Origin: an uncultured Planctomycetota bacterium
GTDB taxonomy: Bacteria > Planctomycetota > Planctomycetia > Gemmatales > Gemmataceae
Direction: 5' to 3'
Length of the DNA stretch: 64,000 bases
NCBI GenBank assembly: GCA_963849325.1
Contig: CAWKHF010000004.1
Span: 64,001-128,000, forward strand
The notes under the pieces were generated by a model. That model was not told where the DNA came from and made no database searches. It worked only from the letters and a program-made list of their open reading frames with translations. The position numbers were made by a program, and so were the translations under genes. Shown here in pieces: positions 1-64,000 of the stretch; the stretch's first letter is position 1, and each line of letters opens with the position of its first letter.

Positions 1-554
1 CCGTTCTTCTGAGGCGTGTGCCCCACGATGGCCACCTTGCCTGAACAGTGCCGGGCTGGGATCGGCGGCAAGGAGGCCCACCGCAGCCCGCCCCAGCGCT
101 GCTCGTGCAGCGGTCGGTCGGGTTCGTAGTAGGCGTGGACGAAGATGTGCCGCAGCGTCTCGAAGTAGTCCCGGCATCCCTTGATGAACTGAAGATGCTC
201 CGAGGGGATAAAGGCACGCAGGTCAGCGGGACGAAGTTCCTGTCCGCTACGGTGGCCGTAAGAGGCCAGGGCCTCCGTGCCCCCGAACTTGAGCCAGTAG
301 CGCAGTTCGGACGACCCTTCGAGGGCGGCGAGCAGCATCTCCTCGTGGTTGCCCAGCAGCGGCACCAGCGTACATCGCTCGGCAAGGGCGATCACCTGCT
401 CCATAACACCCCGACTGTCCGGCCCCCGGTCGATGTAGTCGCCCAGGAAAACCAGGGTGTCGAGTGCGGCAGGGTCGATGGCTCGGACGAGCGTAGACAG
501 TGCCGCCGAGCAGCCGTGAACGTCGCCAATCGCTATCGTGCGTCCTTCGGTCAT
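1..554 (-). CDS. Metallophosphoesterase / Ser-Thr protein phosphatase (3' end runs off window)
   Basis: Own translation of minus strand: MTEGRTIAIGDVHG...LGDYIDRGPDS...LGNHE (calcineurin-like motifs). ATG overlaps the stop of 551..1480. Not in the ORF track because it is truncated. Confidence 0.9.
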   Translation of the reverse strand, partial: MTEGRTIAIGDVHGCSAALSTLVRAIDPAALDTLVFLGDYIDRGPDSRGVMEQVIALAERCTLVPLLGNHEEMLLAALEGSSELRYWLKFGGTEALASYGHRSGQELRPADLRAFIPSEHLQFIKGCRDYFETLRHIFVHAYYEPDRPLHEQRWGGLRWASLPPIPARHCSGKVAIVGHTPQKN

Positions 555-1480
555 GGGGCCTTTGTATCGCTCGTGCTGCGCAAGGGCGGTGCGCTCTCCT
601 GATCGCTCAGCGGCGGCTTCCACTTCACCTGATTCCCCCACACCATGTCAAAATCGGGCAAGACTTCAGCATCGAGGTTCGCCACCATCCATCTCGGCAC
701 GTCCTTGATCGACCGATCCTCGAACAGCCTTCGGCATCTCCCGCAGGCGTGGATGAAAAGCGGCCTGCGGTTGAACATCCCGCTCCACGGAAAGCCAAAG
801 TTGGTCAAGAGGATCGGCTGGTCGCAGTTCAGGCAGAGCGGGGCCGTCGTGCGCCGCCAGGCCGACTTCAGCGCCGCCCAGGGGATGCAGTTCGGCTCGA
901 TGCCCTCCCAGGCGAACCCGGACCATGTGTGGGGAGCCGCCGTCCAGTCGTCTGGCTCTTCCACGACCCGCTGCTTCCACTTTCTCCAGTACGCTTTCCA
1001 GGGCCAAAACGGTGCAAGCCGCTCCCCGAAGAGGAAGTCGTCGCCGTGCCGGGGCGTGCTGATTTCCCGTTTCCTGTCGAGCAGGGCGACCTCCACGCCC
1101 TTCCTTGCCAGTTCGTGCTGCTTAAAGAACGGGCGCAAATCGACACGCCCCTGCTGGCCCCAATGGTGGACCGCCACCCGCCCTGGCCGAAGCTCTAGCA
1201 GGTTCAACTGGCATCGCCGCACGACGAGCCGGATCACCCGCTGCGGGTCAGCGGCGTCGAGCGTCACCAGCCGCTCACGGGCACGTTCCAAGATCGGCTC
1301 CCGTGCGTTGTCCAGTGCCCAGGCCACGGGGTCATCAACCGCCCAGGCTACCCCGGTGGCCGTGTGCAGGAACCAGAACGACCTGGGATTTCCTCCAGCA
1401 CGCAAGCCCCTGGGCAGGAGGAACGAAGCGATTGCGGCAAGAGTCGTCTTGAGGAAAGTGCGCCGGGTTGGGAAGGACAT
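551..1480 (-). CDS. Hypothetical protein with twin-arginine-like N-terminus and CxxC pairs
   Basis: TRRTFLK followed by a hydrophobic stretch; CLNC and CGRC; translationally coupled to the phosphatase. Confidence 0.65.
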   Translation of the reverse strand: MSFPTRRTFLKTTLAAIASFLLPRGLRAGGNPRSFWFLHTATGVAWAVDDPVAWALDNAREPILERARERLVTLDAADPQRVIRLVVRRCQLNLLELRPGRVAVHHWGQQGRVDLRPFFKQHELARKGVEVALLDRKREISTPRHGDDFLFGERLAPFWPWKAYWRKWKQRVVEEPDDWTAAPHTWSGFAWEGIEPNCIPWAALKSAWRRTTAPLCLNCDQPILLTNFGFPWSGMFNRRPLFIHACGRCRRLFEDRSIKDVPRWMVANLDAEVLPDFDMVWGNQVKWKPPLSDQESAPPLRSTSDTKAP

Positions 1481-1735
1481 GACCTCACCTGCGGTTCAGT
1501 GCCATCAAAGAGAAGGTGGCACCGAAACCACCTTCATCGCACGGCTTTCGCCGCCGCTCCTTTACCACCGTGCCTTGCGGGGTCGGTTGGTCGGGGTCGC
1601 AGGAAAGAAGCCATCCTCGCCCGGTCGTGATGAAGACTCTTCAATTATTGCAGGCGTCATGCGTGCTGACAACAACCCCGACCCGTAAAATGGGCCGCAG
1701 GTCGCCAAGGCCAGGACCGGCGGGAAAGGAACTCC

Positions 1736-2113
1736 ATGAACCTCTGCAAAATCTGGATGGAGCAGTGCGAAGCAGCCAGGGGCATCGAGGACGAATTCGG
1801 CACGCAGAAGGCGCTGGCCTACCTCGTGAGCGAGAAGTTCTTGAACTACCTCGAAGCCGCCGAAAAGGACTCCACGTTTCAGGCCGAGCTTCCGGCCTTT
1901 GTTGGCGAGATCAAGAGCCTTTTCGAGCCGTGGCAGCTTGCGGAATGCCTGGAGAAAGCACGGCTGACGGAGCCGTTCGACCCCGGCATCTACGAGGACG
2001 CTGAGCCTGAAGACATCGAGATGGAGCGGAAGGCGGACCTGCGCCGCTGCGCCGCCGACCTGCTGGTGGTGGAGCGGGCGAAGGAGTTGCTGCTGGGCAG
2101 CGGCAGCGAGTGA
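1736..2113 (+). CDS. Hypothetical acidic protein
   Basis: AAGGA RBS; protein-like composition; overlaps next gene. Confidence 0.7.
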   Translation: MNLCKIWMEQCEAARGIEDEFGTQKALAYLVSEKFLNYLEAAEKDSTFQAELPAFVGEIKSLFEPWQLAECLEKARLTEPFDPGIYEDAEPEDIEMERKADLRRCAADLLVVERAKELLLGSGSE

Positions 2114-2466
2114 TGGAGGAGCGCCGGGAAATGAAGCGGTCATCAAGAGGACGGACTTCTGGCAAGGCCACGACTGGTGGGGATGTCGCCACCCTGGAAG
2201 ACATCCCCAACGTCGGCCCAGCCGTCGCCGCTGATCTTCGGCGGCTGGGCATCACCGCCCCCGCCGACTTGCTGGGCCGTGACCCCTATGCGCTGTACGA
2301 GGACTTGTGCGAGAAAACGGGCCAGCGCCACGACCCCTGCCTGCTCGACACGTTCATCGCCGCCGTGCGGTTCATGGCGGGGGAGCCGAAGAAGCCTTGG
2401 TGGGCGTACACGGCGGAACGCAAACGACGCCTGGCGGCTCGAACGCTACCCGCCGACTCGGATTAG
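2110..2466 (+). CDS. Helix-hairpin-helix protein, Cdd1/mitomycin-resistance-like family
   Basis: LEDIPNVGPAVAADLRRLGI...DPYALYEDLC...HDPCLLDTF...WWAYTAERK; start uncertain. Confidence 0.8.
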   Translation: MMEERREMKRSSRGRTSGKATTGGDVATLEDIPNVGPAVAADLRRLGITAPADLLGRDPYALYEDLCEKTGQRHDPCLLDTFIAAVRFMAGEPKKPWWAYTAERKRRLAARTLPADSD

Positions 2467-2476
2467 CGAGGGTGCG

Positions 2477-2992
2477 ATGATCTTCCGGCTTTCGCAAAAG
2501 CTGAACGCCAAGATCAAGGCAGGCATCTTGCCGAGCGTGCCCCTGGACGAGAACCCGTTGGCGGACTGGTCGGCCCACCTGTTCGTGGCGGGCCGGACGC
2601 AGTACCTCCTCCTGAGCAACACGAAGTCGCTCTACTCCACGGTGATGTACGGCAAGGGCGTCACGACCGACAGCCACTTCATCGAACGTGCCCTCGGCGG
2701 CATCCGGGAGTTCATGGAAGCCGATGGCCAGGCGTTCGCCTACCGCCAACTCATCGTGCCCGCCGCCGCATCGGTTCGGTTCGCCAAGGCGCTGGATCGC
2801 TCCGTCACGGGGTCGATGAACGACCTGATAAAACATGCGACGTATTGGCTGGCCGAGGGCGACCAGTCGCCGTTCGACGTTGGCTTCCGGCTCAACGACA
2901 TCCCCATGTCGGCGCTGGCCAGCAGCAGCGGCTCGTCTTACGGCAAGCCACGGGATGCGTTCAGGGCGCTGGCGGGCGGGGTCGAGTCGTGA
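2477..2992 (+). CDS. Conserved hypothetical protein (DUF6933-like)
   Basis: GAGG RBS; MIFRLSQKL...WSAHLF...RSVTGSMND...LNDIPMS. Confidence 0.7.
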   Translation: MIFRLSQKLNAKIKAGILPSVPLDENPLADWSAHLFVAGRTQYLLLSNTKSLYSTVMYGKGVTTDSHFIERALGGIREFMEADGQAFAYRQLIVPAAASVRFAKALDRSVTGSMNDLIKHATYWLAEGDQSPFDVGFRLNDIPMSALASSSGSSYGKPRDAFRALAGGVES

Positions 2993-3069
2993 TGGGACAG
3001 CCAGGGGCTAGAAGCCGCTTCAACCCGACCTGCACGATGAGGGGCTGTGGCTGCCGTTGCCAGCAGGGT

Positions 3070-3522
3070 TCATCGCATCTCCCGCAGGTGTCGGACAATG
3101 GCCCTTTTGAGGAAGAATGATATACCCCACAGCAGCAAACGTGCCAGAGCGGACTTGGCGTGGAGCCGGAAGGAACGGGTAACGTGGGTTCCGTTGGCGG
3201 TGCGCTGGAACTCCCACGTTTCCTCGAACTCGGTCGCCCACCGAGAAAGCGGTGCGGAGAAATCCTTCATTTGAAGCCGAAGCCGGTGATCGGGCTGCCA
3301 CTCCACAATTTCCTCAATATGACTCGACCCGTCCCGGTTCGTGACCCGGATTCGAGAGCCGACGATGCCGGGCGTCTGGACATCGAACACCGCAACCTTG
3401 ATGCCCGGTAGCGGGCCGAAACCGTGGAAGTTGGGCCACTTCGTCAGGTCGAGAATCTGCCGGGCGATCTCTTCGGGAGCGAGAGGAAGTGTGTCTTCGC
3501 AAGAGAAGGTGATCGGGTTCAT
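3070..3522 (-). CDS. SRPBCC / polyketide cyclase family protein
   Basis: DLTKWPNF...VGSRIRV...EEIVEWQP...THVTRSF pattern. Confidence 0.75.
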   Translation of the reverse strand: MNPITFSCEDTLPLAPEEIARQILDLTKWPNFHGFGPLPGIKVAVFDVQTPGIVGSRIRVTNRDGSSHIEEIVEWQPDHRLRLQMKDFSAPLSRWATEFEETWEFQRTANGTHVTRSFRLHAKSALARLLLWGISFFLKRAIVRHLREMR

Positions 3523-3980
3523 TCGGCCCTCTCGCACGCCCTGAGCATCGCCGTCAGCGGCTCCGGGTCGGCCAGGCGGTGGTCGCTGCCTACTTCGACC
3601 AGGGCCGTGGCGGGCAGGCTGCTGGTGCGGACCAGTTCCTCGCTGTCGCTGAACGGCACCACGTCGTCGGCCCGTGAGTGCAAGATGGTCGTTCCGGGCT
3701 TCAGGGTCTTGACCGTCCCGTACTTCTTCCAGGCGGGGCAGAGCAGCACGAGCGGGGTGTCGCCGCTGTCGAGGTTCATGGCCAGCGCCCCGCCCCGTGA
3801 AGAGCCGACCACCACAGCGGGCCGGTGCCGGTCGTACTCGGCCTGGGCGATGCGCACGGCTGCCTCGAAGTCCTCGTCGGGCAGCTTCGGATTGATGACC
3901 TCATGGCCGTGCTGCGCCAGAAAGGTCGGTTTGACCCCGCCAGGGATCGAATGCCAGCCGTGCAGGAAGAGGATTCTCAT
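3519..3980 (-). CDS. Alpha/beta hydrolase (YqiA-like)
   Basis: FLHGW, GSSRGG nucleophile elbow, HSRADDVVP, DHRL. Confidence 0.85.
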   Translation of the reverse strand: MRILFLHGWHSIPGGVKPTFLAQHGHEVINPKLPDEDFEAAVRIAQAEYDRHRPAVVVGSSRGGALAMNLDSGDTPLVLLCPAWKKYGTVKTLKPGTTILHSRADDVVPFSDSEELVRTSSLPATALVEVGSDHRLADPEPLTAMLRACERAE

Positions 3981-4108
3981 GAGGTCGTTGTAGCCTGCTG
4001 CGGTCGGCCTGGCTGTGCGTGCCTGTGACCGGGAGAATACCTGCGGGGGCTTGTTCGGGAGGCCCGCCCTTCCGCAAGATGACCAGAGGCGGCACAGGAG
4101 GGCCTGTC

Positions 4109-4816
4109 GTGGCCAAGAAGAACAAGAAGGAGAAGAAACCCCGGACCCCGGCCCAGTTCGCCACCGAAGTGCAGGTCCGTGTGAAGCCCGGCACGACCGA
4201 CCCGGACTTCCCTGACATCCCGCTCGGCGGCTGGGCCGGGACGATCAGCGAAGTGGACCAGAGATCGGCCCCGCCGACCTACCTGATCGAGTGGGACCGG
4301 CACACGCTGGACCCCATGCACCCCGTCTACCGCAAGCGCTGCGAGCGGGACGGCCTCGGACTCGAAAGCATGTGGCTGGGCGAGGACGACATCGAGCCGG
4401 ACAGCGGCGGGCCAGCCGTCATCGAGCAGCCGACGAGCATCGTGACCCGCCCGCTCAACGAGAAGGACCAGGACGACCGTGTGCGGATCGCCCTGGGGCT
4501 GACGAGCAACGACCCACTCCCGGAAGTCGATGACGACACCCTCCGGGCCTACCACCGCTACCTGGCGGCGCACCTGACATTCCCCTTCGAGGCCAAATGG
4601 GAGCCGGAACACGGGCCAGCGCAGGCCGTGAAAATCACCGGCCTGGGCGACACCGAAGACGACGCCTGGGCGGACGAGATGTACGGGGTGCTGTGCGAGG
4701 CGAGGGCCGAGGGCCGGTTGACCGAAGTGTTGCTGGGCGAGTGCGAGGCCAAGAAGGGCAGCGCCAACCGGCAACTGCTGAAGGATTATGCGTACTGGTT
4801 CTGGAACAACAGGTGA
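4109..4816 (+). CDS. CcbP-like calcium-binding-domain protein
   Basis: AGGAGG RBS with GTG start; LTFPFEAKW...YGVLCEAR...DYAYWFWN. Confidence 0.65.
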   Translation: MAKKNKKEKKPRTPAQFATEVQVRVKPGTTDPDFPDIPLGGWAGTISEVDQRSAPPTYLIEWDRHTLDPMHPVYRKRCERDGLGLESMWLGEDDIEPDSGGPAVIEQPTSIVTRPLNEKDQDDRVRIALGLTSNDPLPEVDDDTLRAYHRYLAAHLTFPFEAKWEPEHGPAQAVKITGLGDTEDDAWADEMYGVLCEARAEGRLTEVLLGECEAKKGSANRQLLKDYAYWFWNNR

Positions 4817-5266
4817 CGGGGAGTGCCCTTGCCAGGCTTCTGCGCCCCAGCTTCGCCGGAGAGGGACGAAGCTGAAGGTTGACGGAACCTCGATCCGTGG
4901 TAATCTGGCTCTTCCCCAGGGCCAAGGACTGGCCGAAGCTGAAGGGACTCAGCCTGGGGTCATCTCGCCTTCGCCTGCCGTCCGCAGATCGACGTGAGAT
5001 CGACGTGCCCGCCCTCCACCGCCGCAGGCTTGTGCCGCACACTGACCAACCTGCCTGGCGCTTTAGCCCTGTCAAGAAGGTCGTGCTGGTCGGTCCTGGG
5101 CGCTTCCCCCGTGGGCTGCGGGCTGACCCCGGCACGGTGTTTGCTCCTCATCCTCCAATGGCGTGCAGCTTCGGGATGCCGGGGTGCAGGGTCCGATGAT
5201 TACTGCCGTCCGAAGGTGGTGTGAGATGGAGGCCAGGCAGGTGGCGACCGTGGAAGGTAAAGACCC

Positions 5267-6885
5267 GTGGATGAACCAGGCACGAAAACGCCGTCGAACG
5301 ATCCGCCTGGAAAGGAGCCGCCTGCGCACGGCCTGGGCGGGGCTGAAGAACAGCACCGCCTGTTGATGGAGTGCGTGACCGACTACGCCATCTTCTTCCT
5401 CGACCCTCACGGGCGGGTCGCCACCTGGAACGCCGGGGCCGAACGCATCTTCCGCTACAGGGAGGCCGAGATCGTCGGCCAGCATTTCTCCCACTTTTCA
5501 CTCCCGAAGACGTTCAACAAGGCATACCGGAGAAGGAACTCCAGAAGGCGGCGACGGCGGGGCGGGCGAATGACGACCGCTGGCTGGTACGCAACGGCGG
5601 GGAGAGGCTGTGGTGCAACGGCGTGACCACTGCCTTGGGGGACGAGAAGGGCGGACTGCGGGGCTTCGCCAAGGTGCTGCGGGACCGCACCGAGCCGAAG
5701 CGTCTGCAAGAAGCCCTGCACCAGCGGGCCGAGGAACTGGCGCAAGAGGCCCGGCAGAAGGACGACTTCCTGGCGGTCCTGGCCCACGAGTTGCGCAACC
5801 CCCTGGCCCCCATACGCAACGCCCTGCAAGTCATCCGCCTGGGCCATCACGACCCTACCCTCGTGGAGCAGATGCGGGCGATGGCCGAGCGCCAGGTCGG
5901 GCACATGACCCGCCTAGTGGACGATCTGCTCGATCTCTCCCGCATCAGCCGGGGCCTGATCCGGTTGCTCAAAGAGCCAGTGGACGTAGGCCAGCCCGTG
6001 CAGCAAGCCATCGAAGGTGTGCAACCCCTGGTCCGGGAACGAAGTCTAACGCTCTCGGTGTCTCTCCCAGCAGAGCCGTGCTACGTCGATGTGGACCCGA
6101 CTCGGTTGCAGCAAGTCGTGGGCAACCTCCTCACCAACGCCGCAAAGTACACCGACCCAGGGGGCAACATCCTGCTCACCGTCCGACCGGAGGGCACCGA
6201 CGTGCTGCTGCGGGTGCGGGACACGGGCATCGGCATCCCGGCTGACATGCTGCCTCGTATCTTCGACCTGTTCGTGCAGGCCGAGCGCCGCCTGGACCGC
6301 TCCCAGGGTGGTTTGGGGATCGGGCTGACCCTGGTGCGCAGGCTGGTGGAAATGCACGGCGGCAACGTCACCGCCCACAGCGAGGGGCCGGGCCAGGGCA
6401 GCGAGTTCGTCGTGCGCCTGCCCGCCCTGCCCGAAGACCGGAAGGGAGAACTCCTGCGGAAGCAGGGCGATGACCAGCAGCCTGTGGCTCCCTCGGCTCC
6501 CCGCCGCATCCTGGTGGTGGACGACAACGTGGACGCCGCCGAGAGCCTGGCCGTGCTGCTGCGGCTGGAGGGGCACGAGGTCCGGGTGGCCTGCGACGGC
6601 CCGGCGGCGCTGGCGGCGGCGCAGGCGGACCCGCCGGAGATGGTGGTGTTGGACCTGGGGATGCCGGGGATGGACGGCTTCGAGGTTGTCCGCCGCCTCC
6701 GGGGGCAGCCGGGGTCGAAGGATGCGCTGTTGGTGGCGGTGACGGGCTGGGCACAGGAGGAGGACCGGCGGCGATGCTACGAGGCGGGCTTCGACGGCCA
6801 CCTGCCCAAGCCGGTCGAGTGGGACGCCCTGCGGCAATTCCTGGCCCACCCCAAGCTGCTCAGGCATCGGCCTGCGGGAAGCTGA
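5267..6885 (+). CDS. PAS-domain hybrid sensor histidine kinase/response regulator (frameshift near 5495)
   Basis: PAS start DYAIFFLDPHGRVATWNAGAERI in one frame, continuing in another to LAHELRNPL, NLLTNAAKY, DTGIGI, GLGIGL and receiver VVDDN...DLGMP...KPV. Confidence 0.9.
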
Positions 6886-6891
6886 TCCGTG

Positions 6892-7092
6892 TCAGCGTGC
6901 TGGCTCCAGACGGGCAGACAAGCTCTCGGCCTGATGCTCGGCCTGCACCGCCTGTTGCGCCCCGGCGTGGCTGGCCTCGTGGCGGCAGTAGCAGTCGAGG
7001 GAACAAGACGGCTGGCCGCACTCCTGACAGAAGAAGGTGGTGTGCAGTTTCCTGCCGCACTCCGAGCAGCAGGCGAAGCTGACAACAGACAT
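6892..7092 (-). CDS. Small Cys-rich putative zinc-binding protein
   Basis: CSEC...CQEC...CSLDC...H; GGAG-rich upstream. Confidence 0.5.
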   Translation of the reverse strand: MSVVSFACCSECGRKLHTTFFCQECGQPSCSLDCYCRHEASHAGAQQAVQAEHQAESLSARLEPAR

Positions 7093-7259
7093 GGCCCTTC
7101 TCTCCTCCGGCATTTTGGGGAGGGACAGCAAGCACCGGAATCCGCCCACGGCCCGGTTCGACCTATATCGCTCCGTTCCTCAAAGGTGCAACTGCCGTGC
7201 CGTATCCCCCGGCAGAACTTTCCGTTTCAGATGGATCAGCGAGGTGGGCGAGGGGAGCT

Positions 7260-7874
7260 TCATCTCTCCCGCCGGATCACCGCAAACCACGCCTTCGGCC
7301 CGCCCGCACTGAAGGTCACGTCCTTAAAGTCAGGCCGAATATCGTAGCGTGATGGCTCGATGGATTCGATGACCCAGCCCTGGGCGAAGGCGTCGTGCAG
7401 TTCCTTCTTCGACACCCGCCTCGGCCCCTGCGTGCCCGGCTCCTCGTCGCTGAAGCAGAGGAGGAACAACCTCCCGCCCGGCTTCAGGACGGTCGCTAGA
7501 CCCTCGACGTAGCGCTTCCGGTCCTCGTCGGAGAAGACGTGAAACAACCCGCTGTCGATCACGTTGTCGAACACTTCGGGGAGGTCTTTGAGCGCCAGGG
7601 CGTCCATCACGAGGAAGGTGACCGTCAGCCCCCGCTCGCTCGCCTTGCGCTTAGCCCGCTGGATCGGTTCTTCGAGGAAGTCGATGCCCGTGACCTTGTG
7701 GCCTCGGCTGGCGAAGAAGAGGGCGTTCTCGCCGGTGCCGCAGCCCACGTCGAGGACGGAGCCGGTGATGGGGTCGGCCACGTCGAGGAACGCCTGCTGC
7801 GGCCCTCCGATGTCCCAGGGCGCTTGCCCGGTGTAGGCGCTCTCGAACGTGCTGCGGTCGGGTAAACTACTCAT
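7260..7874 (-). CDS. Class I SAM-dependent methyltransferase (TPMT-like)
   Basis: PWDIG; VLDVGCGTG motif I; DSGLFH; LKPGG. Confidence 0.9.
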   Translation of the reverse strand: MSSLPDRSTFESAYTGQAPWDIGGPQQAFLDVADPITGSVLDVGCGTGENALFFASRGHKVTGIDFLEEPIQRAKRKASERGLTVTFLVMDALALKDLPEVFDNVIDSGLFHVFSDEDRKRYVEGLATVLKPGGRLFLLCFSDEEPGTQGPRRVSKKELHDAFAQGWVIESIEPSRYDIRPDFKDVTFSAGGPKAWFAVIRRER

Positions 7875-8028
7875 GGCGATAACCCCTCCTTGCGCCCATT
7901 TTAGGGCTTTTGCTGCTCGCCATCGGCTTGGAGGAGCCGAGTGTCAGCGGTTCCGGCAAATGGGACGGGACGCCCTCCGTCTGCACCGGCGTAAAATGAC
8001 AGTAGGGAAGCCCCGTGTCGAAGCGAGA

Positions 8029-8340
8029 ATGCCGATGCTCCTGCACGAGTTCAACTGGAAGAAGGAAGTCCTCCAGGCCAGCGAGCCGGTGCTGGTCGAT
8101 TTTTGGGCCTCATGGTGCCCGCCGTGCCGGGCGATGAACCCGACCATCGAGGCGCTGGCCAGGGAATTCAAGGTCTGCAAGGTGAACGTGGACACCAACC
8201 AGGAACTTGCCGCCCGCTACGACATCTCCTCGATCCCGGCGCTACTGATCTTCAAGGGCGGGCAGATTGCGGCTCGGCACGTCGGCGTGACGCCGGAGGC
8301 CACGCTGCGGGCCGAGATGCAGAGGTTAAGGCAAACATGA
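8029..8340 (+). CDS. trxA: Thioredoxin
   Basis: VLVDFWASWCPPC...KVNVD...SIP. Confidence 0.9.
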   Translation: MPMLLHEFNWKKEVLQASEPVLVDFWASWCPPCRAMNPTIEALAREFKVCKVNVDTNQELAARYDISSIPALLIFKGGQIAARHVGVTPEATLRAEMQRLRQT

Positions 8341-8362
8341 CCGCCCGCCAGGAGGCCAGACC

Positions 8363-8812
8363 ATGACTTTCTTTCGGAGAATCCTTGCAACTGACGCCCC
8401 CGCCGCCGTCCTCCTGATCCGCCTGATCGTCGGCGGTGTGTTTCTCTCCGAGGGCATTCAGAAGTTCCTGTTCCCGGAGGCCCTGGGGGTGGGCCGCTTC
8501 GCCAAGATCGGGATTCCGGCCCCGGAAGTCATGGCCCCGTTTGTCGGGGTGTGCGAGATCGTCTGCGGCGTGCTTTTTCTCCTGGGGTTGCTCACTCGTT
8601 TCGCCGCCATCACCATGATAATCGACATGCTCGTGGCGATCTCGACAACGAAGGTGCCCATGCTGCTCAACGAAGGTATCTGGAAGATGGCGCACGAGGC
8701 CCGCACCGATTGGGCCATGCTGCTGGGGTCGCTCTTCCTTCTTATCGTCGGGGCGGGTTCGTGGTCGTTCGATGCGAAGCTCGCTCGGACGGCTGATCGG
8801 AGAACGGGATAA
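8363..8812 (+). CDS. DoxX family membrane protein
   Basis: LLIRLIVGGVF..EGIQK...EIVCG...GLLTR...GAGSWSFD. Confidence 0.9.
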   Translation: MTFFRRILATDAPAAVLLIRLIVGGVFLSEGIQKFLFPEALGVGRFAKIGIPAPEVMAPFVGVCEIVCGVLFLLGLLTRFAAITMIIDMLVAISTTKVPMLLNEGIWKMAHEARTDWAMLLGSLFLLIVGAGSWSFDAKLARTADRRTG

Positions 8813-8918
8813 CGAGCCATTCGTCAATCGGTGAGCCGTTGTTGACCGCAGCCTTCCGGTCGGGAGCGGGACTGTCCGCATCTCCGGCGGGCCACGTTGA
8901 AGGCCGCAAGTTCCTGCG

Positions 8919-9533
8919 TCATTTGGTGGCGATCCCACGATAGAGATAGCCGGGGGTTTTCGGCATCCGTTCCAGGTAGAACTCCTCGACTTCGACCGAA
9001 GCGAAGGGCTGGGCGGCGGCGAGTTCCCTCATGTTCCGGTCCAGGTGACACCCATTGGCGAGGCGCACTTGCAGCCAGTTCAGGCGGCGCTGCCACTTCT
9101 GCACCTGCGGCTCCGGGCTGAGGCCGTGTTCGAGGAACAGGAACTTGCCGCCGCTCTTTAGCACCCGGTACACTTCCGCCAGGGCTTGGTCAACGCCCTC
9201 GATGCTGCACAGGGTAAACGTGCTGACGGCGCAATCGAAGCGGTTGTCCTCGAAGGGGAGGCGTTCGCCGCCGAGGAGCTGCTGGTCTACCTCCATCGCC
9301 GTGCGTTGAATCCGCTTCTGCGCCAGCCGGTGCATTCCGGGGTGCGGATCGACGGTCGTGAGCATACGGACCCGTTGGGGGTAGTACGGCAGGTTCAACC
9401 CCGTCCCGAAGCCAATCTCCAAAACATCGCCGTAAGCACCGGCGAGCAGATTGCGCCGCTGCCGAGCCAGGAGGGGCTTGTTCAAGAGGAAATCGCATAG
9501 ACGTGGGACAATTACCTGCGAGAAGAAGCCCAC
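8919..9533 (-). CDS. Class I SAM-dependent methyltransferase
   Basis: VLEIGFGTG; FTLCSI; RVLKSGG...LEHG; start uncertain. Confidence 0.85.
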   Translation of the reverse strand: MGFFSQVIVPRLCDFLLNKPLLARQRRNLLAGAYGDVLEIGFGTGLNLPYYPQRVRMLTTVDPHPGMHRLAQKRIQRTAMEVDQQLLGGERLPFEDNRFDCAVSTFTLCSIEGVDQALAEVYRVLKSGGKFLFLEHGLSPEPQVQKWQRRLNWLQVRLANGCHLDRNMRELAAAQPFASVEVEEFYLERMPKTPGYLYRGIATK

Positions 9534-9719
9534 AGTCTTCTCCTGATGTGCTTGGCATGGGCTGGTCCGTTCGTGGCTATTCTACTCGCCTGCCGACCCG
9601 ACGAAACCACGAACGGCGGCGGTGCTACCCGTGCTTCTTGGTGGTCGGCCCGGTTGCAGCCTGGCTAGAATAGCCGAAACGGGCGTCCCTTCGACGCCTC
9701 CTGAAAGGAGGAATCTGCA

Positions 9720-10052
9720 ATGGCTATTCCGCACGCCAAGCCCGGCGAGGTCGTGGACGTTCGGCCCCTGGGGGCGGCGCTGGCCTCGGCGCAAACGCAA
9801 ACCCTGGTTCGTGCCGAGCAGGTGGAGGTCATCCGCCTGGTCGTCCCGGCGGGCAAGGAGATCGAGGAGCATAAGGCCAAGGGCGAGATCGTCGTGCAAT
9901 GCCTGGAGGGGCGGGTGGTCTTCACCGCCTTCGGCAAGACGCACAACCTTGAGGCCGGGAAGCTCCTCTACCTGCCCACGGGGGAGCCACACTCGGTCAA
10001 GGGGATCGAGAACGCCTCGCTCCTGCTGACGATCCTCCTGCCCAAGCACTGA
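9720..10052 (+). CDS. Cupin domain protein
   Basis: AGGAGG RBS; EHKAKGEIVVQCLEGRV...PHSVKG. Confidence 0.85.
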   Translation: MAIPHAKPGEVVDVRPLGAALASAQTQTLVRAEQVEVIRLVVPAGKEIEEHKAKGEIVVQCLEGRVVFTAFGKTHNLEAGKLLYLPTGEPHSVKGIENASLLLTILLPKH

Positions 10053-10230
10053 AAGCGCCGCCCGTCGCCGGGCCTTCACGGTCGAGAGTCCTTCGCCAGC
10101 AACAGCATGGCCACCGGCGTGTGCGCCTGGAGGCCGTGGCGCAGGCCGGTGGGCATGTGGACCCAGGTGCCGGGCGTGGCACTCGTTTTGCTCCTGGTGA
10201 GAGTGGGGCGTTTTTCAGGAGGGCAGAACG

Positions 10231-10455
10231 ATGGCAAGCGACCTGAAGCGAGGCGATCATGTCGAGTGGAACTCGGAAGCGGGGCGGGTCCGGGGAACGA
10301 TCCAGAAGAAAGTGACTTCGGAGATCACCTTCAAGGGCTACAGGCGGCACGCCTCCCAGGAGGAGCCGCAGTACATCATCAAGAGCGACAAGACCGACCA
10401 CCTGGCCATCCACAAGGGGTCGGCCCTCAAGAAGCTCAAGAAGACCAAAGGCTAA
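10231..10455 (+). CDS. DUF2945 (Tudor-like) small protein
   Basis: GDHVEWNSEAG...EPQYIIKSDKT...HKGSAL. Confidence 0.85.
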   Translation: MASDLKRGDHVEWNSEAGRVRGTIQKKVTSEITFKGYRRHASQEEPQYIIKSDKTDHLAIHKGSALKKLKKTKG

Positions 10456-10531
10456 CCCACGCCGATGGTTTCCGTCTCGGCGTCCCTCCTGGTGCTGACG
10501 GGGGCCATCGCCTCGGTGAGCGGCATCGGGA

Positions 10532-11407
10532 TCAGACCTGGCTCCTTTCCCGCATCGACTCGGCCAGGCGTTCGACTTGCTGGCGCATCTCGGCGGCGGG
10601 CAAATACACCCGCTGGCCGTGGCCGGGCAAGACCCACTCGAACCGATACGCCGCCAGCCGCCCCATCGACTCGGCCTGCTGCGGCCACGAATACCAGCAG
10701 TAGTCCTCGGAGGCCGAAAGCTGCTGCGTGTCCCGGTCCCAATCCAGGTGGTCGCCGGTGAACAGGAAGCGCTCCTGGTAGAGCAGAACGCAGTGGCCCT
10801 TCGTGTGTCCCGGCGTGGGGATGGCGAGGAAATCTGGAGCCAACTCCCACGGCCCCTCACCATCGAGAACGACTTCCGCACCGGGCTGCGACGAAAACTC
10901 CTCCCGATGGATGATGCGGCGACTGCCGAAATGCCCGGCGTAGCGCTGGGCGTCGGCTACGTCGTCTCGGTGCGTCAGGAAGATGTGGGCGATGCCGCCC
11001 AGCTTCTCAAGCTGCCGCACCAGCGGGGTCACGAACTTGGGCGAGTCGATGAGCCAGTTCCCAGCAGCGTGCTTGATGAAGTAGCTGTTGCCGCCATACG
11101 ACTTCGGAGAATTGAACCCGCAGTAATAGACCGGCGCCTCGATGAGAAGGGGGAAGTCCTTCATCACCGCCTTCACGTCATCGTCACTGAGGCAGCCGAT
11201 GGACCCCGTGGGGCAGGCCAGGAGCGCTTGCAGCGCCCGCCGCCGGTCGGCGCTGGCAACCGGCTGGGCCTTGACGAAGGACGTTTCCGCCGCCTCTCCG
11301 AAGACCGCAGGGGCGATCTGCCGACAGGCATCGCAGTCGATGCAGGTCGAATCTACGAAGAAGTCGCCAGGGACGTTTTCCGGCACCCGCTTCTTGGGGT
11401 TGGCCAT
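10532..11407 (-). CDS. Ferredoxin-metallo-beta-lactamase-fold fusion
   Basis: CIDCDAC...CPTGSI followed by THRDDVAD, TPGHT, FTGDH, PGHG. Confidence 0.9.
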   Translation of the reverse strand: MANPKKRVPENVPGDFFVDSTCIDCDACRQIAPAVFGEAAETSFVKAQPVASADRRRALQALLACPTGSIGCLSDDDVKAVMKDFPLLIEAPVYYCGFNSPKSYGGNSYFIKHAAGNWLIDSPKFVTPLVRQLEKLGGIAHIFLTHRDDVADAQRYAGHFGSRRIIHREEFSSQPGAEVVLDGEGPWELAPDFLAIPTPGHTKGHCVLLYQERFLFTGDHLDWDRDTQQLSASEDYCWYSWPQQAESMGRLAAYRFEWVLPGHGQRVYLPAAEMRQQVERLAESMRERSQV

Positions 11408-11498
11408 GATCGAACCTCCTCTTTGCATTCTACCTGTGCGGGAGGCTCTTGAATTGCATCATCGTGGCGGCGCATACCCAAGCTGGAACCGGCCCGTC

Positions 11499-12233
11499 TC
11501 AATTCCGACGTTCCGGCTTCGTGGCAGTCACGAGACGAGTTGCTGCCCAGGGACCACCCCACCAAAACCGCCATCCCAGCCTCCTGCGGGTAACATCGTA
11601 AATGCCGATTTTGGCAAGCTGTGCCTGGTGATGCCGGGTGCCCCGAATGTCAGCGATCATCAGCCGACCGCCAGGACGTAGCACCCGCACCGCTTCGTCA
11701 ACTGCTTTCTCTCGGCCAGCACGTCCGCTGATGTTGTGGATGGCCAGACTGGAAACAACCACATCAAAACTGTTGTCTGCAAAGGGCAGCGATGTCATGT
11801 CGCCGGTGTGCAATTCGATACGATCAGCTACCCCCTCAGCGATGGCGTTGCGCCGGGTAGCCTCGGCAGAATTGCCGGACTGATCGACGCTTCGCCACAA
11901 GTCCACGCCCACTGCCCGGCCTGTCGTCAAGCGTTGAGCGGCCATTAGCAGCACCGCACCCCGGCCACATCCCAGGTCCAGTATTCGCTCGTCACCCCGA
12001 AGCCCCAGCTTGTCCAGCAATTCGGCCCAAACCATGAACTTGCCTCGAAGCGTGGTGTGAAGGTAGAAACTTTCGATGGTCAACAGGAATAGGACAGCCA
12101 GAAACGGCAGCAATCGGCCAGAGATAATTGCCATTACGAGGATAGCAACGGTCATGACTGCAATGGCAGCGGGCGCATAGGGAGCATCAATCCCATACGA
12201 ACCACGCCGTCGAGGTTGCACCTGTCCAGTCAT
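11499..12233 (-). CDS. Membrane-anchored class I SAM methyltransferase
   Basis: YGIDAP, two TM segments, LDLGCGRG, LAIHNI, RVLRPGG. Confidence 0.85.
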   Translation of the reverse strand: MTGQVQPRRRGSYGIDAPYAPAAIAVMTVAILVMAIISGRLLPFLAVLFLLTIESFYLHTTLRGKFMVWAELLDKLGLRGDERILDLGCGRGAVLLMAAQRLTTGRAVGVDLWRSVDQSGNSAEATRRNAIAEGVADRIELHTGDMTSLPFADNSFDVVVSSLAIHNISGRAGREKAVDEAVRVLRPGGRLMIADIRGTRHHQAQLAKIGIYDVTRRRLGWRFWWGGPWAATRLVTATKPERRN

Positions 12234-12280
12234 CGGGGTGTCTTCTTTCCGTTCTGAGAATCCTCGCCATCGCATTCCCA

Positions 12281-12753
12281 TCAGTGACCTGACAACTTGA
12301 TCTCGATGCCATATCGAGCGCAGCGGCCAGCAGCTTCTCGATCTCGTCCTTCGTGGACGGGGCGGCAGTCGTAGCGCCTGGCGGGACAGGGACGCCGACC
12401 TCGAAGAACATCTTTTCCAGCCCGGCAGGGGCGACGGAGATCAGCATTCGGGCGGGTTTGCCGCTCTCGTTCTTGAACGAGTGTAGCGTGCCGACAGGCA
12501 TGTTGGCGAACATCCCGGCATTGGCAACGAGCCGTTGGTCGCCAAGCGTGAGGGTGATCTCGCCTTCGAGGACGTAGAAGCCTTCTTCCTCCCGGCTGTG
12601 GACGTGCGGGGGTGGCCCACCGCCCGGAGGCACGACTGCTTCCCACATGGCGTACTTGCCGTTGGTGTCCTCGCCGGTGGCCAGGAAGCGGTACACATCA
12701 CCGACGACGGCGATGGTGCGCCCTTCGGCGGGCTTGCGGGTCGTCGGGTTCAT
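12281..12753 (-). CDS. Cupin domain protein (frameshift near 12320)
   Basis: PPPHVHSREEEGFYVLEG...HSFKN; typical C-terminus ARYGIEI lies in another frame. Confidence 0.85.
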
Positions 12754-12769
12754 TCGGTTCTCACTCCTC

Positions 12770-13099
12770 TCACTTCACAGGCAACTTCCCGACGAACTTC
12801 ACGGCCCGCCCAATCCAGCCGCTCAACTGCTCGTCGCCCTCGACGCCTTCCGGGGCGACCAGCACCCAGCCCTTCATCGACCTCCCGGTGATGTCGAACT
12901 TCTTGACGTGCGGCTCAGGTAGCGCCTCCTCAGCCTGCTCCGGGCCGAGCCGGACACAGAGGGAGTCCTTCCAGACTCCCACCAGCAGGTTGCCGTTCAG
13001 CAGGAAGCCGACCCCGCCAAACATCTTCTTTTCCTCGACGTTCTTGCGCCGGGCCAGTGCGTTGCGGATGCGTTCGGCAAGGGCTTCGCTGAAGGCCAT
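12770..13099 (-). CDS. TfoX/Sxy N-terminal domain protein
   Basis: EKKMFGGVGFLLNGN...MKGWV. Confidence 0.85.
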   Translation of the reverse strand: MAFSEALAERIRNALARRKNVEEKKMFGGVGFLLNGNLLVGVWKDSLCVRLGPEQAEEALPEPHVKKFDITGRSMKGWVLVAPEGVEGDEQLSGWIGRAVKFVGKLPVK

Positions 13100-49355: not shown

Positions 49356-49363
49356 GAAGGAGC

Positions 49364-52984: not shown

Positions 52985-53827
52985 CTATTCCGGTCGGCTG
53001 CTGTTGATGATCTTCACCGCCGCCTCCTTTATCCTCTTGAGCCGTTCCTCCGGGGTGTCAGAAATACCCAACTTCACCATGCTGACGATGGGAAGAGGGG
53101 GAAAAACCTTGAAGATAGCCTTGATCTCTTCGACCCCATCGGCGTAATCCGCCACACGAGCAATCATGTCCTCGTTGACCCTGACCTGGGGTTCCGTCAA
53201 CAGCACCAGCTTGCGCTCGTCAGGGGGCAGGGCGTTCACAAATTCCATCAACTTCGCTCCCACTGCCTTCGCTTCGGGCGTTGCCTGCTTGTAGTCCGTT
53301 TCCTCGTAATGGCCGAAGAACAACTCGTGGAAGGGCCGGAGGGATTTCAGAGGCGTCACGTCAACTTCGTTGGTAACGAAGGTTTCGGCTTTTTCCTTCG
53401 GCAAGCCGGATTCGGTGAGCGACCGAACGGCAGCCTGTGTAACCGTTTCGCCCTCGACTGGTGCGGACAAACGAATGCTGCTCTTGGTAAAGCGCTGCTC
53501 GACCTGGACCAAGGCTTGCATATCCGGCTGGCCATGTTGAGCCGATGTCAAGGTGAGGTTGTTCGGCTTGGTCTTCAGAAGACTCTCGCACCACAGGTCA
53601 AAGCAAGCACGTTCCAACTCGGCTCTGCTGGTGCGTACCCGCTCGTCAACAATGTCTTTGACGACCTTCGCAGCCACATCGCGCTGGAAAGCCTCCGTCA
53701 AATCACCCAGCGGCGGCGAAACGGGCTGCCCGCCTGTGGCCGTGGCCGGAGTAGTGCCGAAGTCGCCAGACGAGGGCAGGCCAATGCTACGACGAGTCGC
53801 CATTCCGTCACTCCTTGCGCCAGTCAC
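52985..53827 (-). CDS. Hypothetical protein
   Basis: Long ORF opposite to its neighbours; start uncertain (about 53803). Confidence 0.65.
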   Translation of the reverse strand: MTGARSDGMATRRSIGLPSSGDFGTTPATATGGQPVSPPLGDLTEAFQRDVAAKVVKDIVDERVRTSRAELERACFDLWCESLLKTKPNNLTLTSAQHGQPDMQALVQVEQRFTKSSIRLSAPVEGETVTQAAVRSLTESGLPKEKAETFVTNEVDVTPLKSLRPFHELFFGHYEETDYKQATPEAKAVGAKLMEFVNALPPDERKLVLLTEPQVRVNEDMIARVADYADGVEEIKAIFKVFPPLPIVSMVKLGISDTPEERLKRIKEAAVKIINSSRPE

Positions 53828-54194: not shown

Positions 54195-55974
54195 TTACTT
54201 GACACCACGCCCCAGCTTCGCCTCTTGCAAGCGCTTCAGCCCGGCTTCGGTAATCTTGGTGCCAGCCAGCCCGATGTCCTGAAGGTCGGGCAATTCGGCC
54301 AGCGCCTCCAGCCCGGCATCCGTGACCTGCGTGTGGTGCAGGTGGAGCGTGCGCAGCTTCTTCAGCCCCACGAGCTTCTTCAGCCCGGCGTCCGTGACCC
54401 GTGTTTTCGTCAGGCGCAGATCGGTGAGGCCCGTCAGGTCTTTCAGGTGGTCCAGGCCCGCATCCGAAACCTGCGTGTAGTCGAGGTTCAAGTGCGACAG
54501 CTTCTTCAGCCATTCCAGGTGCTTGAGGCCGTCGTCGGTGATCGGTGTGGCGGAAAGGCCGAGATGCTGAAGCTCGGTAAGCCCCTCCAGGTGTTCCAGC
54601 CCGGCGTCGGTGATCTTCGTCTGGTGCAGGTCGAGGAATTGGAGGGCCGTGCAACCCTTGAGAGACACGAGGCCCGCATCCGTCACCTTGGTCTTGGTGA
54701 GGCGAAGCTCACCCAGGTTGGTCATCCCGTCGAACTGCTTCAAGCCCTCGTCGGACGTATCGGTGAAGTCGAGGTTGAAACGCCGTAACTCCGGCCTTTT
54801 CGCTGAGGCGGTCTTCTCTTCTGCCGCCTGCTTGGGTCGTCCCGTCAGCAGAATCGGACCAGTACGCCGCCAGGACGACGATCCCGGCGAGGGCGAGGAC
54901 GCCACCGAGCGCCAGCAGCTTGCCCTTCTTGAGCCGGGGAGGTTGCAGGAAGGCGTTCAACTCGTCGGCCAACTCCTGGGCGCTGGCGTAGCGCCGGGCC
55001 GGGTCTTTCGACAGGCACTTCAGGCAGATGCGCTCCAATTGCGGCGGGATGGCGGGGTTCCGTGACCGCAGGCTGGGCGGGTCGTGGGAGAGAATCTTGT
55101 CCTTCAAGGCCACCGGGCTGGGGTCGTAAAACGGCAGGCGTCCGCTCAGCAACTCGTAGAGGACGACGCCCAGGCTCCACAGGTCGCTTCGTGCGTCGAT
55201 GACCTGGCCGCTGACCTGTTCGGGGGAGGCGTAGGCCAAGGTCGCCAGGGTCCGCTGCGGCTCCTGCAACAGTTCTTGCTCGGTGGCGGCGATCCCGAAA
55301 TCGGTCAGGCGCGGGCTGTTCTGGCCGTCGAGGAGGATGTTGGCGGGCTTGATGTCTCGGTGAATCAGCCCTTGACCGTGGGCGTAGGCCAGAATGCGGG
55401 CGACCTCGGCCACGATGCGAGCGGCCTCGTTGGTAGGCAGGCAACCCTGGTGCAGCCGTGCCGCCAGGTCCGCCCCTTCGATCAGGTCGGAGACGAAAAA
55501 GTAGCCCCCGCTCTCCCGGCAGATGTCGTGGACGGCGACGATGCCGGGGTGCCGCAGCCGGGCCACCTTGCGGGCCTCGGCCACGAACTGCTCGATCTCT
55601 TCCGTCGAGAACCGGCGGCTCGGCTTGGGAACCTTGACGGCGACGGGGCGCTGCAATTCGAGATCGAGGCCCTGCCAGACCTGGCCGAAGCCGCCCTCGT
55701 TGAGCAGCCGATCCAGGCGGTAGCGGCCCGCCAGGGTCCGGGGGCAGGAGTCGGGAGCGGTGCCCGAAGTGGGCGGTTCCTCCTCGACCAGCTTCTTCAT
55801 CCAGGCAACGGATTGGAGGGCACTGATGCGTTCCCTGAGCGGTTCGGCAAGGTCCGGGCGGTCACGGCACAATTCCTCCACAGCCACGTCCCGGCCCTGG
55901 TCGTGGGACTCCTCCCAGCGGAGCAGCAGATCAGCGAGCGAGTCGTCGTCAGGCATTGGGTGGTCATCTCTCAC
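54195..55974 (-). CDS. Hanks-type Ser/Thr kinase with TM segment and C-terminal leucine-rich repeats (frameshift near 54850)
   Basis: EGGFG, VAVK, HRDIKPAN, TDFG, SPE, DLWSLG; TM; 24-aa LRRs L.L..T.VTDAGL. Confidence 0.9.
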
Positions 55975-62842: not shown

Positions 62843-63169
62843 GGGTTTCACTCCGGCATCGTTGCTACAGAATTATAGTAGTGTACCTCCAGCGAAATTT
62901 GGAACGAAGAGCGGAATGTGAAAAGCGCATTTCCATTATTGCGCTCACCACTACATCCGCCTGCCGGGATTGCTGGCGCACTCTGAACCCCTGTTGAAAG
63001 AAGGGCAGATTCTTCGGCCTTATGCGGTCACAAGTTGACGCCTGAAAATTGAAAATGTCACCTATGGTGGCTTGCGAGAAATATAAATATGAGGTCAACG
63101 AAAGCATATAATATGACGCCTCTCGCAATATAACGCATGAACGCCGTCGCCCGGCCCGACTATTGCATC

Positions 63170-63294
63170 GTAGAGGTTGTAGACGTTGTTGAAGTTCTTG
63201 CCAAGAACGGTGGGAATGAAGGCCGGGAATCCTTTATGCCAGCAACCTATCCTCATGCCTTAGAAGAATCATCTACAACCGCTACAACGCCTAC
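63170..63294. repeat. Inverted arrays of 9-bp GTAGnnGTT repeats next to an AT-rich stretch (origin-like)
   Basis: GTAGAGGTT GTAGACGTT GTTGAAGTT versus reverse complement GTAGGCGTT GTAGCGGTT GTAGATGAT. Confidence 0.6.
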
Positions 63295-63401
63295 AGCCCC
63301 GTGGTCATGCGCCGCCAGTACGAAAAGCACTTTGCAACTCAGCCAGCCGTTCCTATACTGAGACAACGATAACGCACTCCCGCTCATCCAGTCCAGCATT
63401 G

Positions 63402-63475
63402 CCTGGCGGGTTAGTTGGCGGGCGGCACAACCTCAACCTCGTGAGGGATGCTGCGCCGCCAACTAACCCGCCAGG
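63402..63475. repeat. Perfect 20-bp inverted repeat followed by a T tract
   Basis: CCTGGCGGGTTAGTTGGCGG / CCGCCAACTAACCCGCCAGG + TTTTTT. Confidence 0.8.
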
Positions 63476-63509
63476 TTTTTTGTTGCGCCGCCTCCTCTGG
63501 TGCGATCTC

Positions 63510-63734
63510 GTGAGCGGTTCTCCCGTCGTTCCCGTCCGAATCCCAGCCGAATTGCTCGAACTGCTGGACCAAGCCGTTGCCCGGTCGATGGCCACCCGCA
63601 GAGACGGTCCCTGGACCCGCTCCAACTTCATCGTTGCCGCCATCGAGGAGAAGTTGAAGAAGATGGCCCGCAATTCGGGCAAAAGCCAATCGCCCCTGCC
63701 GACGACCCACCGCCGGGATTCTGCGACCTTCTGA
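63510..63734 (+). CDS. Ribbon-helix-helix (CopG-like) protein
   Basis: VVPVRIPAELLELLD...TRSNFIVAAIEEKL. Confidence 0.7.
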   Translation: MSGSPVVPVRIPAELLELLDQAVARSMATRRDGPWTRSNFIVAAIEEKLKKMARNSGKSQSPLPTTHRRDSATF

Positions 63735-64000
63735 GGAAGGGTGTATTACACCCCCTCCGGGAAAGCGGTGGCAAAGAACTTGGCAGAATCCGGCGCTCGT
63801 GGTTTACAGATCGCCAATTTTCGCAGTAAAGAGAGATACCCGAACCGACAGCAACTTGGGCAAGCAGTCAGGGAGATCACTGGAGTCATGCGCAAGAGCA
63901 AGGTCAAGAAGCCTGGCAATACCAAGGCCCAGGAGCAGCGGCACAGCATTCCCCCCGCCCTGCGGATTTCTGGCAGGCCGTCCTTCGATTGGGTCATGGA

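Follow-up and report, generated by a model that had tools for sequence, protein, structure and literature searches.

A putative ~78-kb integrative element of the Gemmataceae is nearly free of CGCG and dozens of other restriction-type words

Why would a tetranucleotide made only of G and C be almost missing from a long stretch of G+C-rich bacterial DNA? The question arises from a 64,000-nucleotide stretch (hereafter the window) that corresponds to positions 64,001-128,000 of contig C4 in the genome of an uncultured planctomycete of the Gemmataceae (G000; 8.16 Mb in 14 contigs, 65% guanine plus cytosine [G+C]). A first-pass annotation of the window had reported that CGCG is nearly absent outside one insertion sequence (IS), and it had suggested selection by restriction and modification as the cause. 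Our analysis makes it very probable that the window belongs to a ~78-kb integrative mobile element that avoids restriction site by site and does so under continuing selection. CGCG proved to be one of ~45 words purged from this element and the only one of 4 or 5 bp; the other words had been overlooked in the first pass.

Exact counting found 18 CGCG in the window. Fifteen of these occur inside an IS66-family insertion (22408-23637), and three occur outside it: at 30864..30867, inside a gene encoding a ParB-methyltransferase fusion; at 53680..53683; and at 55310..55313, inside a serine/threonine (Ser/Thr) kinase gene. Of the earlier tallies, the two sites given outside the IS (30864 and 55310) are both present, whereas the site at 53680 was missed; the estimate of ~14 sites inside the IS was nearly right. 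Based on the window's own trinucleotides and dinucleotides (1552*1558/6443, from the counts of CGC, GCG, and GC), the Markov expectation for CGCG is ~375, and at the host density of 11.6 per kb, ~725 CGCG would be expected in 62.5 kb. With three sites observed outside the IS versus ~375 expected, the depletion had even been understated. GCGC and CCGG are common in the window (344 and 669 occurrences, respectively), as the first pass had stated.

A depletion of this kind could be a trait of the whole chromosome. However, CGCG occurs at 9.5-13.1 per kb in all 14 host contigs, with Markov observed/expected (O/E) ratios of 0.82-0.89, and the CGCG-poor tract (C4:63,325-141,649) is the sole such tract in the genome. 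The genome's five longest CGCG-free gaps (23.1, 22.8, 12.0, 8.7, and 7.2 kb) all lie within this tract, and the sixth-longest gap in the whole genome is 3.6 kb. Because the host contigs are not depleted and the tract is unique in the genome, the depletion is a trait of the element. With the IS removed, the tract contains 5 CGCG in 76.7 kb (Markov O/E of 0.011 versus 0.868 for the host), and no second tetranucleotide in the element approaches this depletion. Each 4-kb bin of the tract contains 0-2 CGCG, the IS bin excepted; the cargo, the small-gene array, and the replication module thus share the depletion, as had been proposed.

We compared all 5-mers and 6-mers of the element with those of the host. 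Among the 64 hexamer palindromes, 48 are absent from the element (49 with refined borders); 23 of the absent palindromes have a Markov expectation of >10, with many expectations falling between 10 and 84. Purged hexamers include GCCGGC (0 observed/213 expected), CGGCCG (0/177), GGCGCC (2/95), and CGATCG (0/51), and CAGCTC is also nearly absent (1/78). Degenerate palindromes are purged as well (CYCGRG, 1/66; GWGCWC, 0/55; RGATCY, 0/46; YACGTR, 0/20; SAGCTS, 1/110), as are interrupted palindromes (GCCN5GGC, 1/119; CAGN3CTG, 0/37; GATN4ATC, 0/14; CCTN5AGG, 0/21), including a GAC/GTC series with spacers of three to six nucleotides (GACN3GTC, 0/34; GACN4GTC, 0/16; GACN5GTC, 1/21; GACN6GTC, 0/43). 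Further interrupted words are low (TCGNCGA, 7/119; GCGWCGC, 0/51), and several asymmetric words are purged (GGTCTC, 1/33; CCCAGW, 1/65; GAGGTG, 2/49; GGCGGAG, 1/42; GTCCCC, 1/29). In form, these words resemble the recognition sites of Type II and Type IIS restriction enzymes. They include what we take to be the sites of BstUI/FnuDII, NaeI, EagI, NarI, AvaI, HgiAI, XhoII, and BsaAI, and presumably also those of BglI, AlwNI, Tth111I, DrdI, BsaI, and others. We know of no characterized enzyme for SAGCTS, TCGNCGA, GGCSGCC, CCGWCGG, GCGWCGC, CCCAGW, or GAGGTG.

Other words of the same shapes are retained. Among palindromes, TGGCCA (58 observed/40 expected), AGCGCT (33/29), TGCGCA (32/31), GAATTC (21/11), TCATGA (12/12), and TTGCAA (10/10) occur at normal frequency, and the same applies to interrupted and asymmetric words such as CCAN6TGG (31/21), GAAN4TTC (35/23), GCTNAGC (14/19), CGTCTC (48/69), and GAAGAC (81/66). 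Control words of both kinds occur at 0.7-1.9 of expectation in this element and in its sister element, described below. None of the 32 W/S classes of five-base palindromes is purged (ratios of 0.27-1.73), and no 4-bp palindrome other than CGCG is purged in the element. The purge is therefore motif-specific and does not reflect a general dislike of palindromes.

One could suppose that the tract simply keeps the signature of a donor lineage that is poor in CGCG and palindromes genome-wide, with no selection specific to the element; indeed, the element's G+C content (63%) and several of its word frequencies differ slightly from those of the host. However, the O/E of 0.011 is already corrected for the element's own trinucleotides and dinucleotides, and in 4x4 tables of the bases flanking each 4-bp core, the holes are exact single cells at the palindromic positions, with adjacent cells normal. 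For the CCGG core, for example, the counts are 0 for ACCGGT, 1 for CCCGGG, 0 for GCCGGC, and 0 for TCCGGA, whereas the remaining 12 cells hold 22-118 occurrences each. The element also shares domain families with its host flanks, a paralogous integrase gene lies just outside it, and both the flanks of the sister element and the host-native IS copies are normal in word content. We consider such a foreign-composition origin highly unlikely.

To map the purge, we defined a forbidden set of 52 words (51 non-retained hexamer palindromes plus CGCG). These words occur at 18.9 per kb across contig C4, but only 9 occur at C4:63,383-141,648 outside the IS66 copy; elsewhere in the genome, 5-kb windows contain a minimum of 21 and a median of 117. 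Based on the maps of CGCG and of forbidden words, the purged element occupies the entire window (1..64000). Besides the three CGCG, the window contains two forbidden hexamers outside the IS: GGCGCC at 11133..11138 and CCCGGG at 28812.

A DUF932 protein encoded in the window (48252..49199, minus strand; PF06067, E = 1.3e-49) was used to look for related elements, and a homologue with 90% identity led to another species of the host's genus (G002). The sister element in that genome (G002:C3:3,760,130-3,850,300) is syntenic with the first but inverted. Outside its own IS66 insert it contains 24 forbidden words, versus ~2,000 predicted by the density of its flanks (22.9 per kb), and it retains the same palindromes (TGGCCA, 66; AGCGCT, 38; TGCGCA, 34; GAATTC, 23; TCATGA, 17; TTGCAA, 10). 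We also considered the purge as a general trait of DUF932-bearing elements and rejected this; it is not such a trait, because 19 distant DUF932 loci (≤57% identity; from G000, G002, G006, G017, and 13 other genomes) have normal densities of 8.9-38 forbidden words per kb.

The two sister elements align in 27 blocks (35.4 kb) with 87.8% identity and 4,273 substitutions. When the same number and spectrum of substitutions were placed at random, 471 +/- 23 forbidden words resulted (range of 407-540 in 300 runs); those observed in the aligned blocks were 8 in G002 and 4 in G000. The purge has been upheld by purifying selection while the sister elements diverged by 12%. From the same random-placement test, ~0.11 forbidden words arise per substitution, at which rate the 9 residual sites in the G000 element would correspond to at most roughly 0.1% neutral divergence since selection ended.

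A third relative (L048) was identified through a protein with 80% identity to the element's 676-amino-acid (aa) putative replication protein, and it contains 3.1 forbidden words per kb. Of its 63 forbidden words, 59 are GCCGGC (28), CGCG (17), or CGGCCG (14), whereas neutral decay of the G000 element predicts that these three would make up ~42%. Because the words in L048 are skewed to these three, selection acts word by word and differs among lineages.

These comparisons bear on whether the words could have been lost without any selection by restriction, through deamination of 5-methylcytosine at sites that were methylated in earlier hosts. CGCA/TGCG, which arises from CGCG by a transition, ranks with the most enriched tetranucleotides (O/E of 1.19 in the element versus 0.86 in the host), which fits such decay; however, other one-step neighbors of CGCG (AGCG and CGCC), plus CCCG, are enriched too. 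Decay would require methylation at ~45 different words, and it accounts neither for 8 new sites in place of 471 after 4,273 substitutions nor for L048 having regained only three words, a lineage-specific pattern. The probability that we attach to it is very small.

Within coding sequence, the purge has been achieved at the DNA level by synonymous codon choice that depends on context. CGC makes up 37% of arginine codons in the element when the next codon does not begin with G, but none of 376 when it does (host, 57%). Similarly, the share of GCG among alanine codons is 0% after a codon ending in C (host, 21%) and 37% otherwise, and codons of the form NCG precede CGN at 1% in the element versus 55% in the host. 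Taken with the substitution test and the normal frequency of control words, this context dependence leaves selection against restriction targets as the best explanation, as the first pass had supposed.

The first-pass annotation had also suggested that CGCG density could map the boundaries of the element, and it did: the edges are a fragment of a transfer RNA (tRNA) gene and an integrase gene interrupted by an IS. As delimited from these features, the whole element spans C4:63,609-141,359 (-391 to +77,359 relative to the window; ~78 kb, 63% G+C). At its left end is a 42-bp tRNA-Val(gac) 3' fragment (C4:63,567-63,608) that is identical at 41 of 42 positions to C13:80,474-80,515, the end of an intact tRNA-Val gene on contig C13 (C13:80,442-80,515). 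Outside the left edge lies a truncated integrase paralogue with normal word composition. At the right end is a tyrosine integrase gene (PF00589, phrog_1) that is cut at C4:141,359/141,360 by a 1.33-kb IS (C4:141,360-142,695). This IS has ~10 genomic copies, terminal repeats CAGTAGTTTCCGG, and 5-bp AGNCT target duplications.

The start of the integrase gene is missing from C4 and appears to be on C13. At 112 nt past the intact tRNA-Val on that contig, an open reading frame (ORF) starts MARRRKGELPRYRLHKQS and then enters the same 1.33-kb IS; this piece supplies the first 54 nt (18 codons). The C4 frame leaving the IS reads SGQAVVSLPLGGGKYRDFLLGPF, its first residue, S, being encoded by the duplicated target, and the counterpart sequence in the paralogous integrase is MPRLKKGAIPSYRHHKARNCAVVTIDGHDHYLGPF. 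We read the C13 and C4 pieces as two parts of one interrupted integrase gene. The 5-bp duplications do not discriminate between C4 being joined through the IS and recombination between IS copies; nevertheless, because of the attachment (att) repeat on the left and the fit between the C13 and C4 pieces, the element is integrated at tRNA-Val however the IS copies were joined. No exact repeat of >12 bp is shared between the two C4 edges; the att repeat is instead on C13. In public sequencing runs, which were sought for the IS junction or an excised circle, the share of sampled words was ≤0.15 in every run.

Based on these features, the element can be classified as a tRNA-integrated island with a tyrosine integrase and a classical att repeat. 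It is like other such islands in having an integrase beside a tRNA gene and a repeat of the tRNA 3' end on the far side; it is unlike them in that the integrase is interrupted by an IS and its halves are on separate contigs. Contigs C9, C10, C13, and C14 all terminate inside copies of the 1.33-kb IS, and several assembly breaks are therefore attributable to it. With the right edge in an IS of ~10 copies, and with the first 18 integrase codons and the intact tRNA-Val on C13 rather than C4, a plasmid or phage contig might have been wrongly joined to a chromosomal contig, in which case no island would be integrated. Yet the left junction has a classical att structure, with the 42-bp copy of the tRNA-Val 3' end adjoining chromosomal DNA, and the end of C13 and C4:141,359 fit together as one interrupted integrase gene beside tRNA-Val. 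An assembly artifact is extremely improbable, and it would alter only the map of the right edge, leaving the purge untouched.

Restriction-type words have returned to the element with the IS66-family insertion. This insertion (1.49 kb; 22347..23835, plus strand, with ends read from three copies) carries a single transposase ORF (22403-23809) whose product matches DDE_Tnp_IS66 (PF03050, E = 2.3e-26), DUF6444, and zf-IS66. Two further copies, on contigs C3 and C6, have 99.6% and 99.3% identity, and the ends match in all three copies; by its transposase, its near-identical copies, and its ends, the insertion is assigned to the IS66 family. It holds 47 forbidden words (22396-23784), a host-like density, and 15 of the 18 CGCG in the window. 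Because of this host-level content of forbidden words and the near-identical genomic copies, the insertion appears to have come from the present host after the purge, in agreement with the earlier suggestion that it had arrived recently from unconstrained DNA. The G002 element has an IS66-family insertion of its own (526-aa transposase; C3:3,818,360-3,820,742), which has normal word density and lies at a different site from that in G000.

The remaining genes of the element fall into several regions. The cargo (645..20287, delimited using Pfam matches) has 0 CGCG in every bin and is purged like the remainder; this ~20 kb of metabolic cargo encodes a hybrid histidine kinase, small-molecule methyltransferases, a thioredoxin, a DoxX protein, cupins, a 3-methyladenine glycosylase, a split phosphoesterase, and a DsbA protein. 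The phosphoesterase (PF04185; 16766-18270) is represented by two overlapping ORFs, which between them span the N-terminal and C-terminal portions of the family, probably owing to a frameshift in a cargo gene. A gene at 30487..31602 (plus strand) encodes a fusion of a ParB-N domain with a Dam-type N6-adenine DNA methyltransferase (PF02195, PF05869; phrog_111, phrog_12047; also recognized by NCBIfam), for which no partner nuclease was identified. An array of ~15 small co-directional ORFs (36158..42936, minus strand, from ORF picking) has no Pfam or PHROGs match. It is followed by genes for a ParB-type partition protein (43249..44190, minus strand; PF17762, PF02195; phrog_1033), the DUF932 protein, and a PAPS-reductase-like protein (49340..50383, plus strand; phrog_424, E = 8.7e-30, with a weak PF01507 match). 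An ECF sigma factor and the Ser/Thr kinase are also encoded.

The window ends within the gene for the 676-aa primase/polymerase-like replication protein (63741..64000, plus strand; full gene, C4:127,741-129,771). This protein has no Pfam or NCBIfam match and no match among phage records. Its atlas neighbors are clusters of viral hypothetical proteins, the nearest Pfam-bearing clusters being those with DUF5906, VapE-like, and PriCT domains, and among plasmid records it has one weak match, to a Streptomyces plasmid protein annotated as a bifunctional primase/polymerase (26% identity across 59% of the length). These matches hint at a weak primase/polymerase likeness. After this gene comes one for a 217-aa N6/N4 DNA methyltransferase (PF01555). 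In the right arm of the element, four copies of a ~200-bp repeat (75-85% identity) occur at C4:135,055-139,510 (starting at 135,055, 137,416, 138,421, and 139,306), with a DUF1580 ORF nearby.

Because the element has many ORFs without a family match, we considered whether it imposes the constraint on itself, either by triggering a palindrome-directed defense or by encoding one or more nucleases, such as a CGCG cutter, that lack a cognate methylase. CGCG does stand apart as the sole purged 4-bp word. However, scans with Pfam, PHROGs, and NCBIfam found no nuclease domain in the element, and the host chromosome, with 11.6 CGCG per kb, would be cut unless methylated. One nuclease would also be insufficient for ~45 unrelated words and could explain CGCG at most. 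A self-inflicted constraint is very unlikely.

The host chromosome itself avoids many hexamer palindromes, with Markov O/E ratios of 0.06-0.36 for 20 of them, which suggests prolonged exposure to many restriction systems. Its strongest avoidance concerns GAGCTC, GTCGAC, GTGCAC, TTCGAA, ACGCGT, and CTCGAG (Markov O/E of 0.06-0.13); it does not avoid CGCG or hexamer palindromes composed only of G and C. The palindromes that the element retains are all among those not avoided by the host (host O/E of 0.76-1.10), and AAGCTT is no exception, as it is low in the element too (5 versus a Markov expectation of 37). At least 12 host loci exceed the PF01555 cut-off. A cassette at G000:C1:262,978-265,937 (L029:4978-7937) encodes a Vsr protein, a 531-aa 5-methylcytosine (m5C) DNA methyltransferase that is the genome's only PF00145 match, and a convergent 361-aa ORF without a family match. 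It is on a 3.3-kb islet of 56-60% G+C in which CGCG is absent (25 expected). We attempted to name a CGCG enzyme from this cassette and did not retain it as a finding, given that its homologues have no informative names and the 361-aa protein is rare.

Three other host loci were recorded in passing. A 3.6-kb segment of 54% G+C at G000:C2:659,710-663,288 (L030) contains an integrase-like ORF, 2 forbidden words, and 0 CGCG versus 15 expected; possibly this is a further purged mobile element of small size. At G000:C5:7,534-8,039, within a stretch that is among the few others poor in CGCG, TCCGGA occurs five times, once each 126 bp; because of this regular spacing, the locus is a tandem repeat. At G000:C4:433,741-435,175, 13 tRNA genes lie within 1.4 kb (Phe, Lys, Trp, Lys, Pro, Pro, Leu, Asp, Leu, Val, Ala, Ala, Arg).

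Restriction avoidance by a mobile element would produce the observed pattern as follows. The element would enter recipient cells as unmethylated DNA, and the restriction enzymes of those recipients would be the selecting agent, acting against their recognition words; an element free of such sites could not be cut, irrespective of a recipient's enzyme set. Commoner 4- and 5-bp sites, CGCG aside, are retained and might be protected by the element's two own methyltransferases. Both IS insertions, including the one in the integrase gene, would have been acquired from the present host after arrival, thereby reintroducing restriction sites.

Several points weigh against this account. Neither element contains a recognized conjugation or virion gene to explain transfer: no relaxase, coupling protein, or type IV secretion gene was recognized with Pfam among 108 G000 and 87 G002 proteins, although divergent genes may escape these models, and no terminase, portal, capsid, or tail gene was found with PHROGs (68 proteins) or Pfam, a weak negative given that planctomycete phages are poorly represented. 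Genes were called with our own ORF picker based on G+C at third codon positions (GC3) and not with a standard gene finder. The contrast of 9 forbidden words with ~1,440 is partly circular, as the forbidden set was derived from the element itself; the G002 and L048 counts are fair tests, yet these elements are kin and not independent origins. The link between purged words and real enzymes is presumptive, being drawn from known enzyme-site pairs. Finally, the Vsr/m5C methyltransferase/361-aa cassette may be a CGCG-specific restriction-modification candidate, but it is only a lead; among 401 genomes sampled from the phylum, just 2, one of them G000, contain the 361-aa protein.

Restriction-site avoidance is well established, although it is usually partial and concerns few words or small replicons, and the phage cases known to us involve one or a few avoided words, not ~45. 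The kind of avoidance seen here is thus known, and its completeness is exceptional: across 76-88 kb, cargo genes among them, most hexamers are missing entirely. New beside known avoidance are the extension to interrupted and asymmetric words, the inclusion of one very frequent 4-bp word, and its occurrence in an integrated planctomycete element. In the literature searched, no planctomycete element with such a purge was found; equally extreme cases may be included among the supplementary plasmids of Shaw et al. 2023.

For plasmids, the relevant passages of Shaw et al. [quoted passage not shown] The same passages describe avoidance as greatest in small plasmids, whereas for large plasmids of broad host range they propose a reliance on methyltransferases; set against that description, the 78-90-kb element combines a near-total purge with two methyltransferase genes. 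As summarized from Wilkins et al. 1996 in PMC10359461, the IncP-1 backbone is depleted of 6-bp palindromes, 4-bp palindromes not being strongly avoided, and this was read as selection by restriction in many hosts. Compared by that description only, the IncP-1 backbone is similar to our element as a large G+C-rich mobile replicon depleted of 6-bp restriction-type palindromes; it differs in that the element has 49 of 64 hexamers at zero in 76 kb, cargo included, also purges CGCG (~890 expected) and interrupted and asymmetric words, is integrated at a tRNA gene, and has no recognizable conjugation genes. Avoidance of restriction sites is also described for prokaryotic viruses by Rusinov et al. 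2018 (PMC6286503) and, as cited in PMC10359461, by Sharp 1986 and Rocha et al. 2001. As in those accounts, loss of recognition sites would be the simplest anti-restriction strategy; unlike the viruses described there, the element has no recognized virion genes.

It is possible, though we hold this tentatively, that the islands form a hitherto undescribed family of large integrative replicons of the Gemmataceae, made restriction-blind by the elimination of ~45 words, cargo included. If so, the list of purged words would mirror, in negative, the restriction repertoire of an uncultured lineage, and the element would predict new enzyme specificities and provide a naturally evolved vector backbone for use in bacteria refractory to genetic manipulation. 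The element is a clean natural example of the extent to which selection can recode DNA without changing protein, and in it word counts alone suffice to place the boundaries of a mobile element and to put later insertions in order. As a read-out of the restriction specificities that circulate in an uncultured planctomycete lineage, it includes several that are candidates for new ones, and its backbone could inform vector design for planctomycetes, a group that is difficult to transform.

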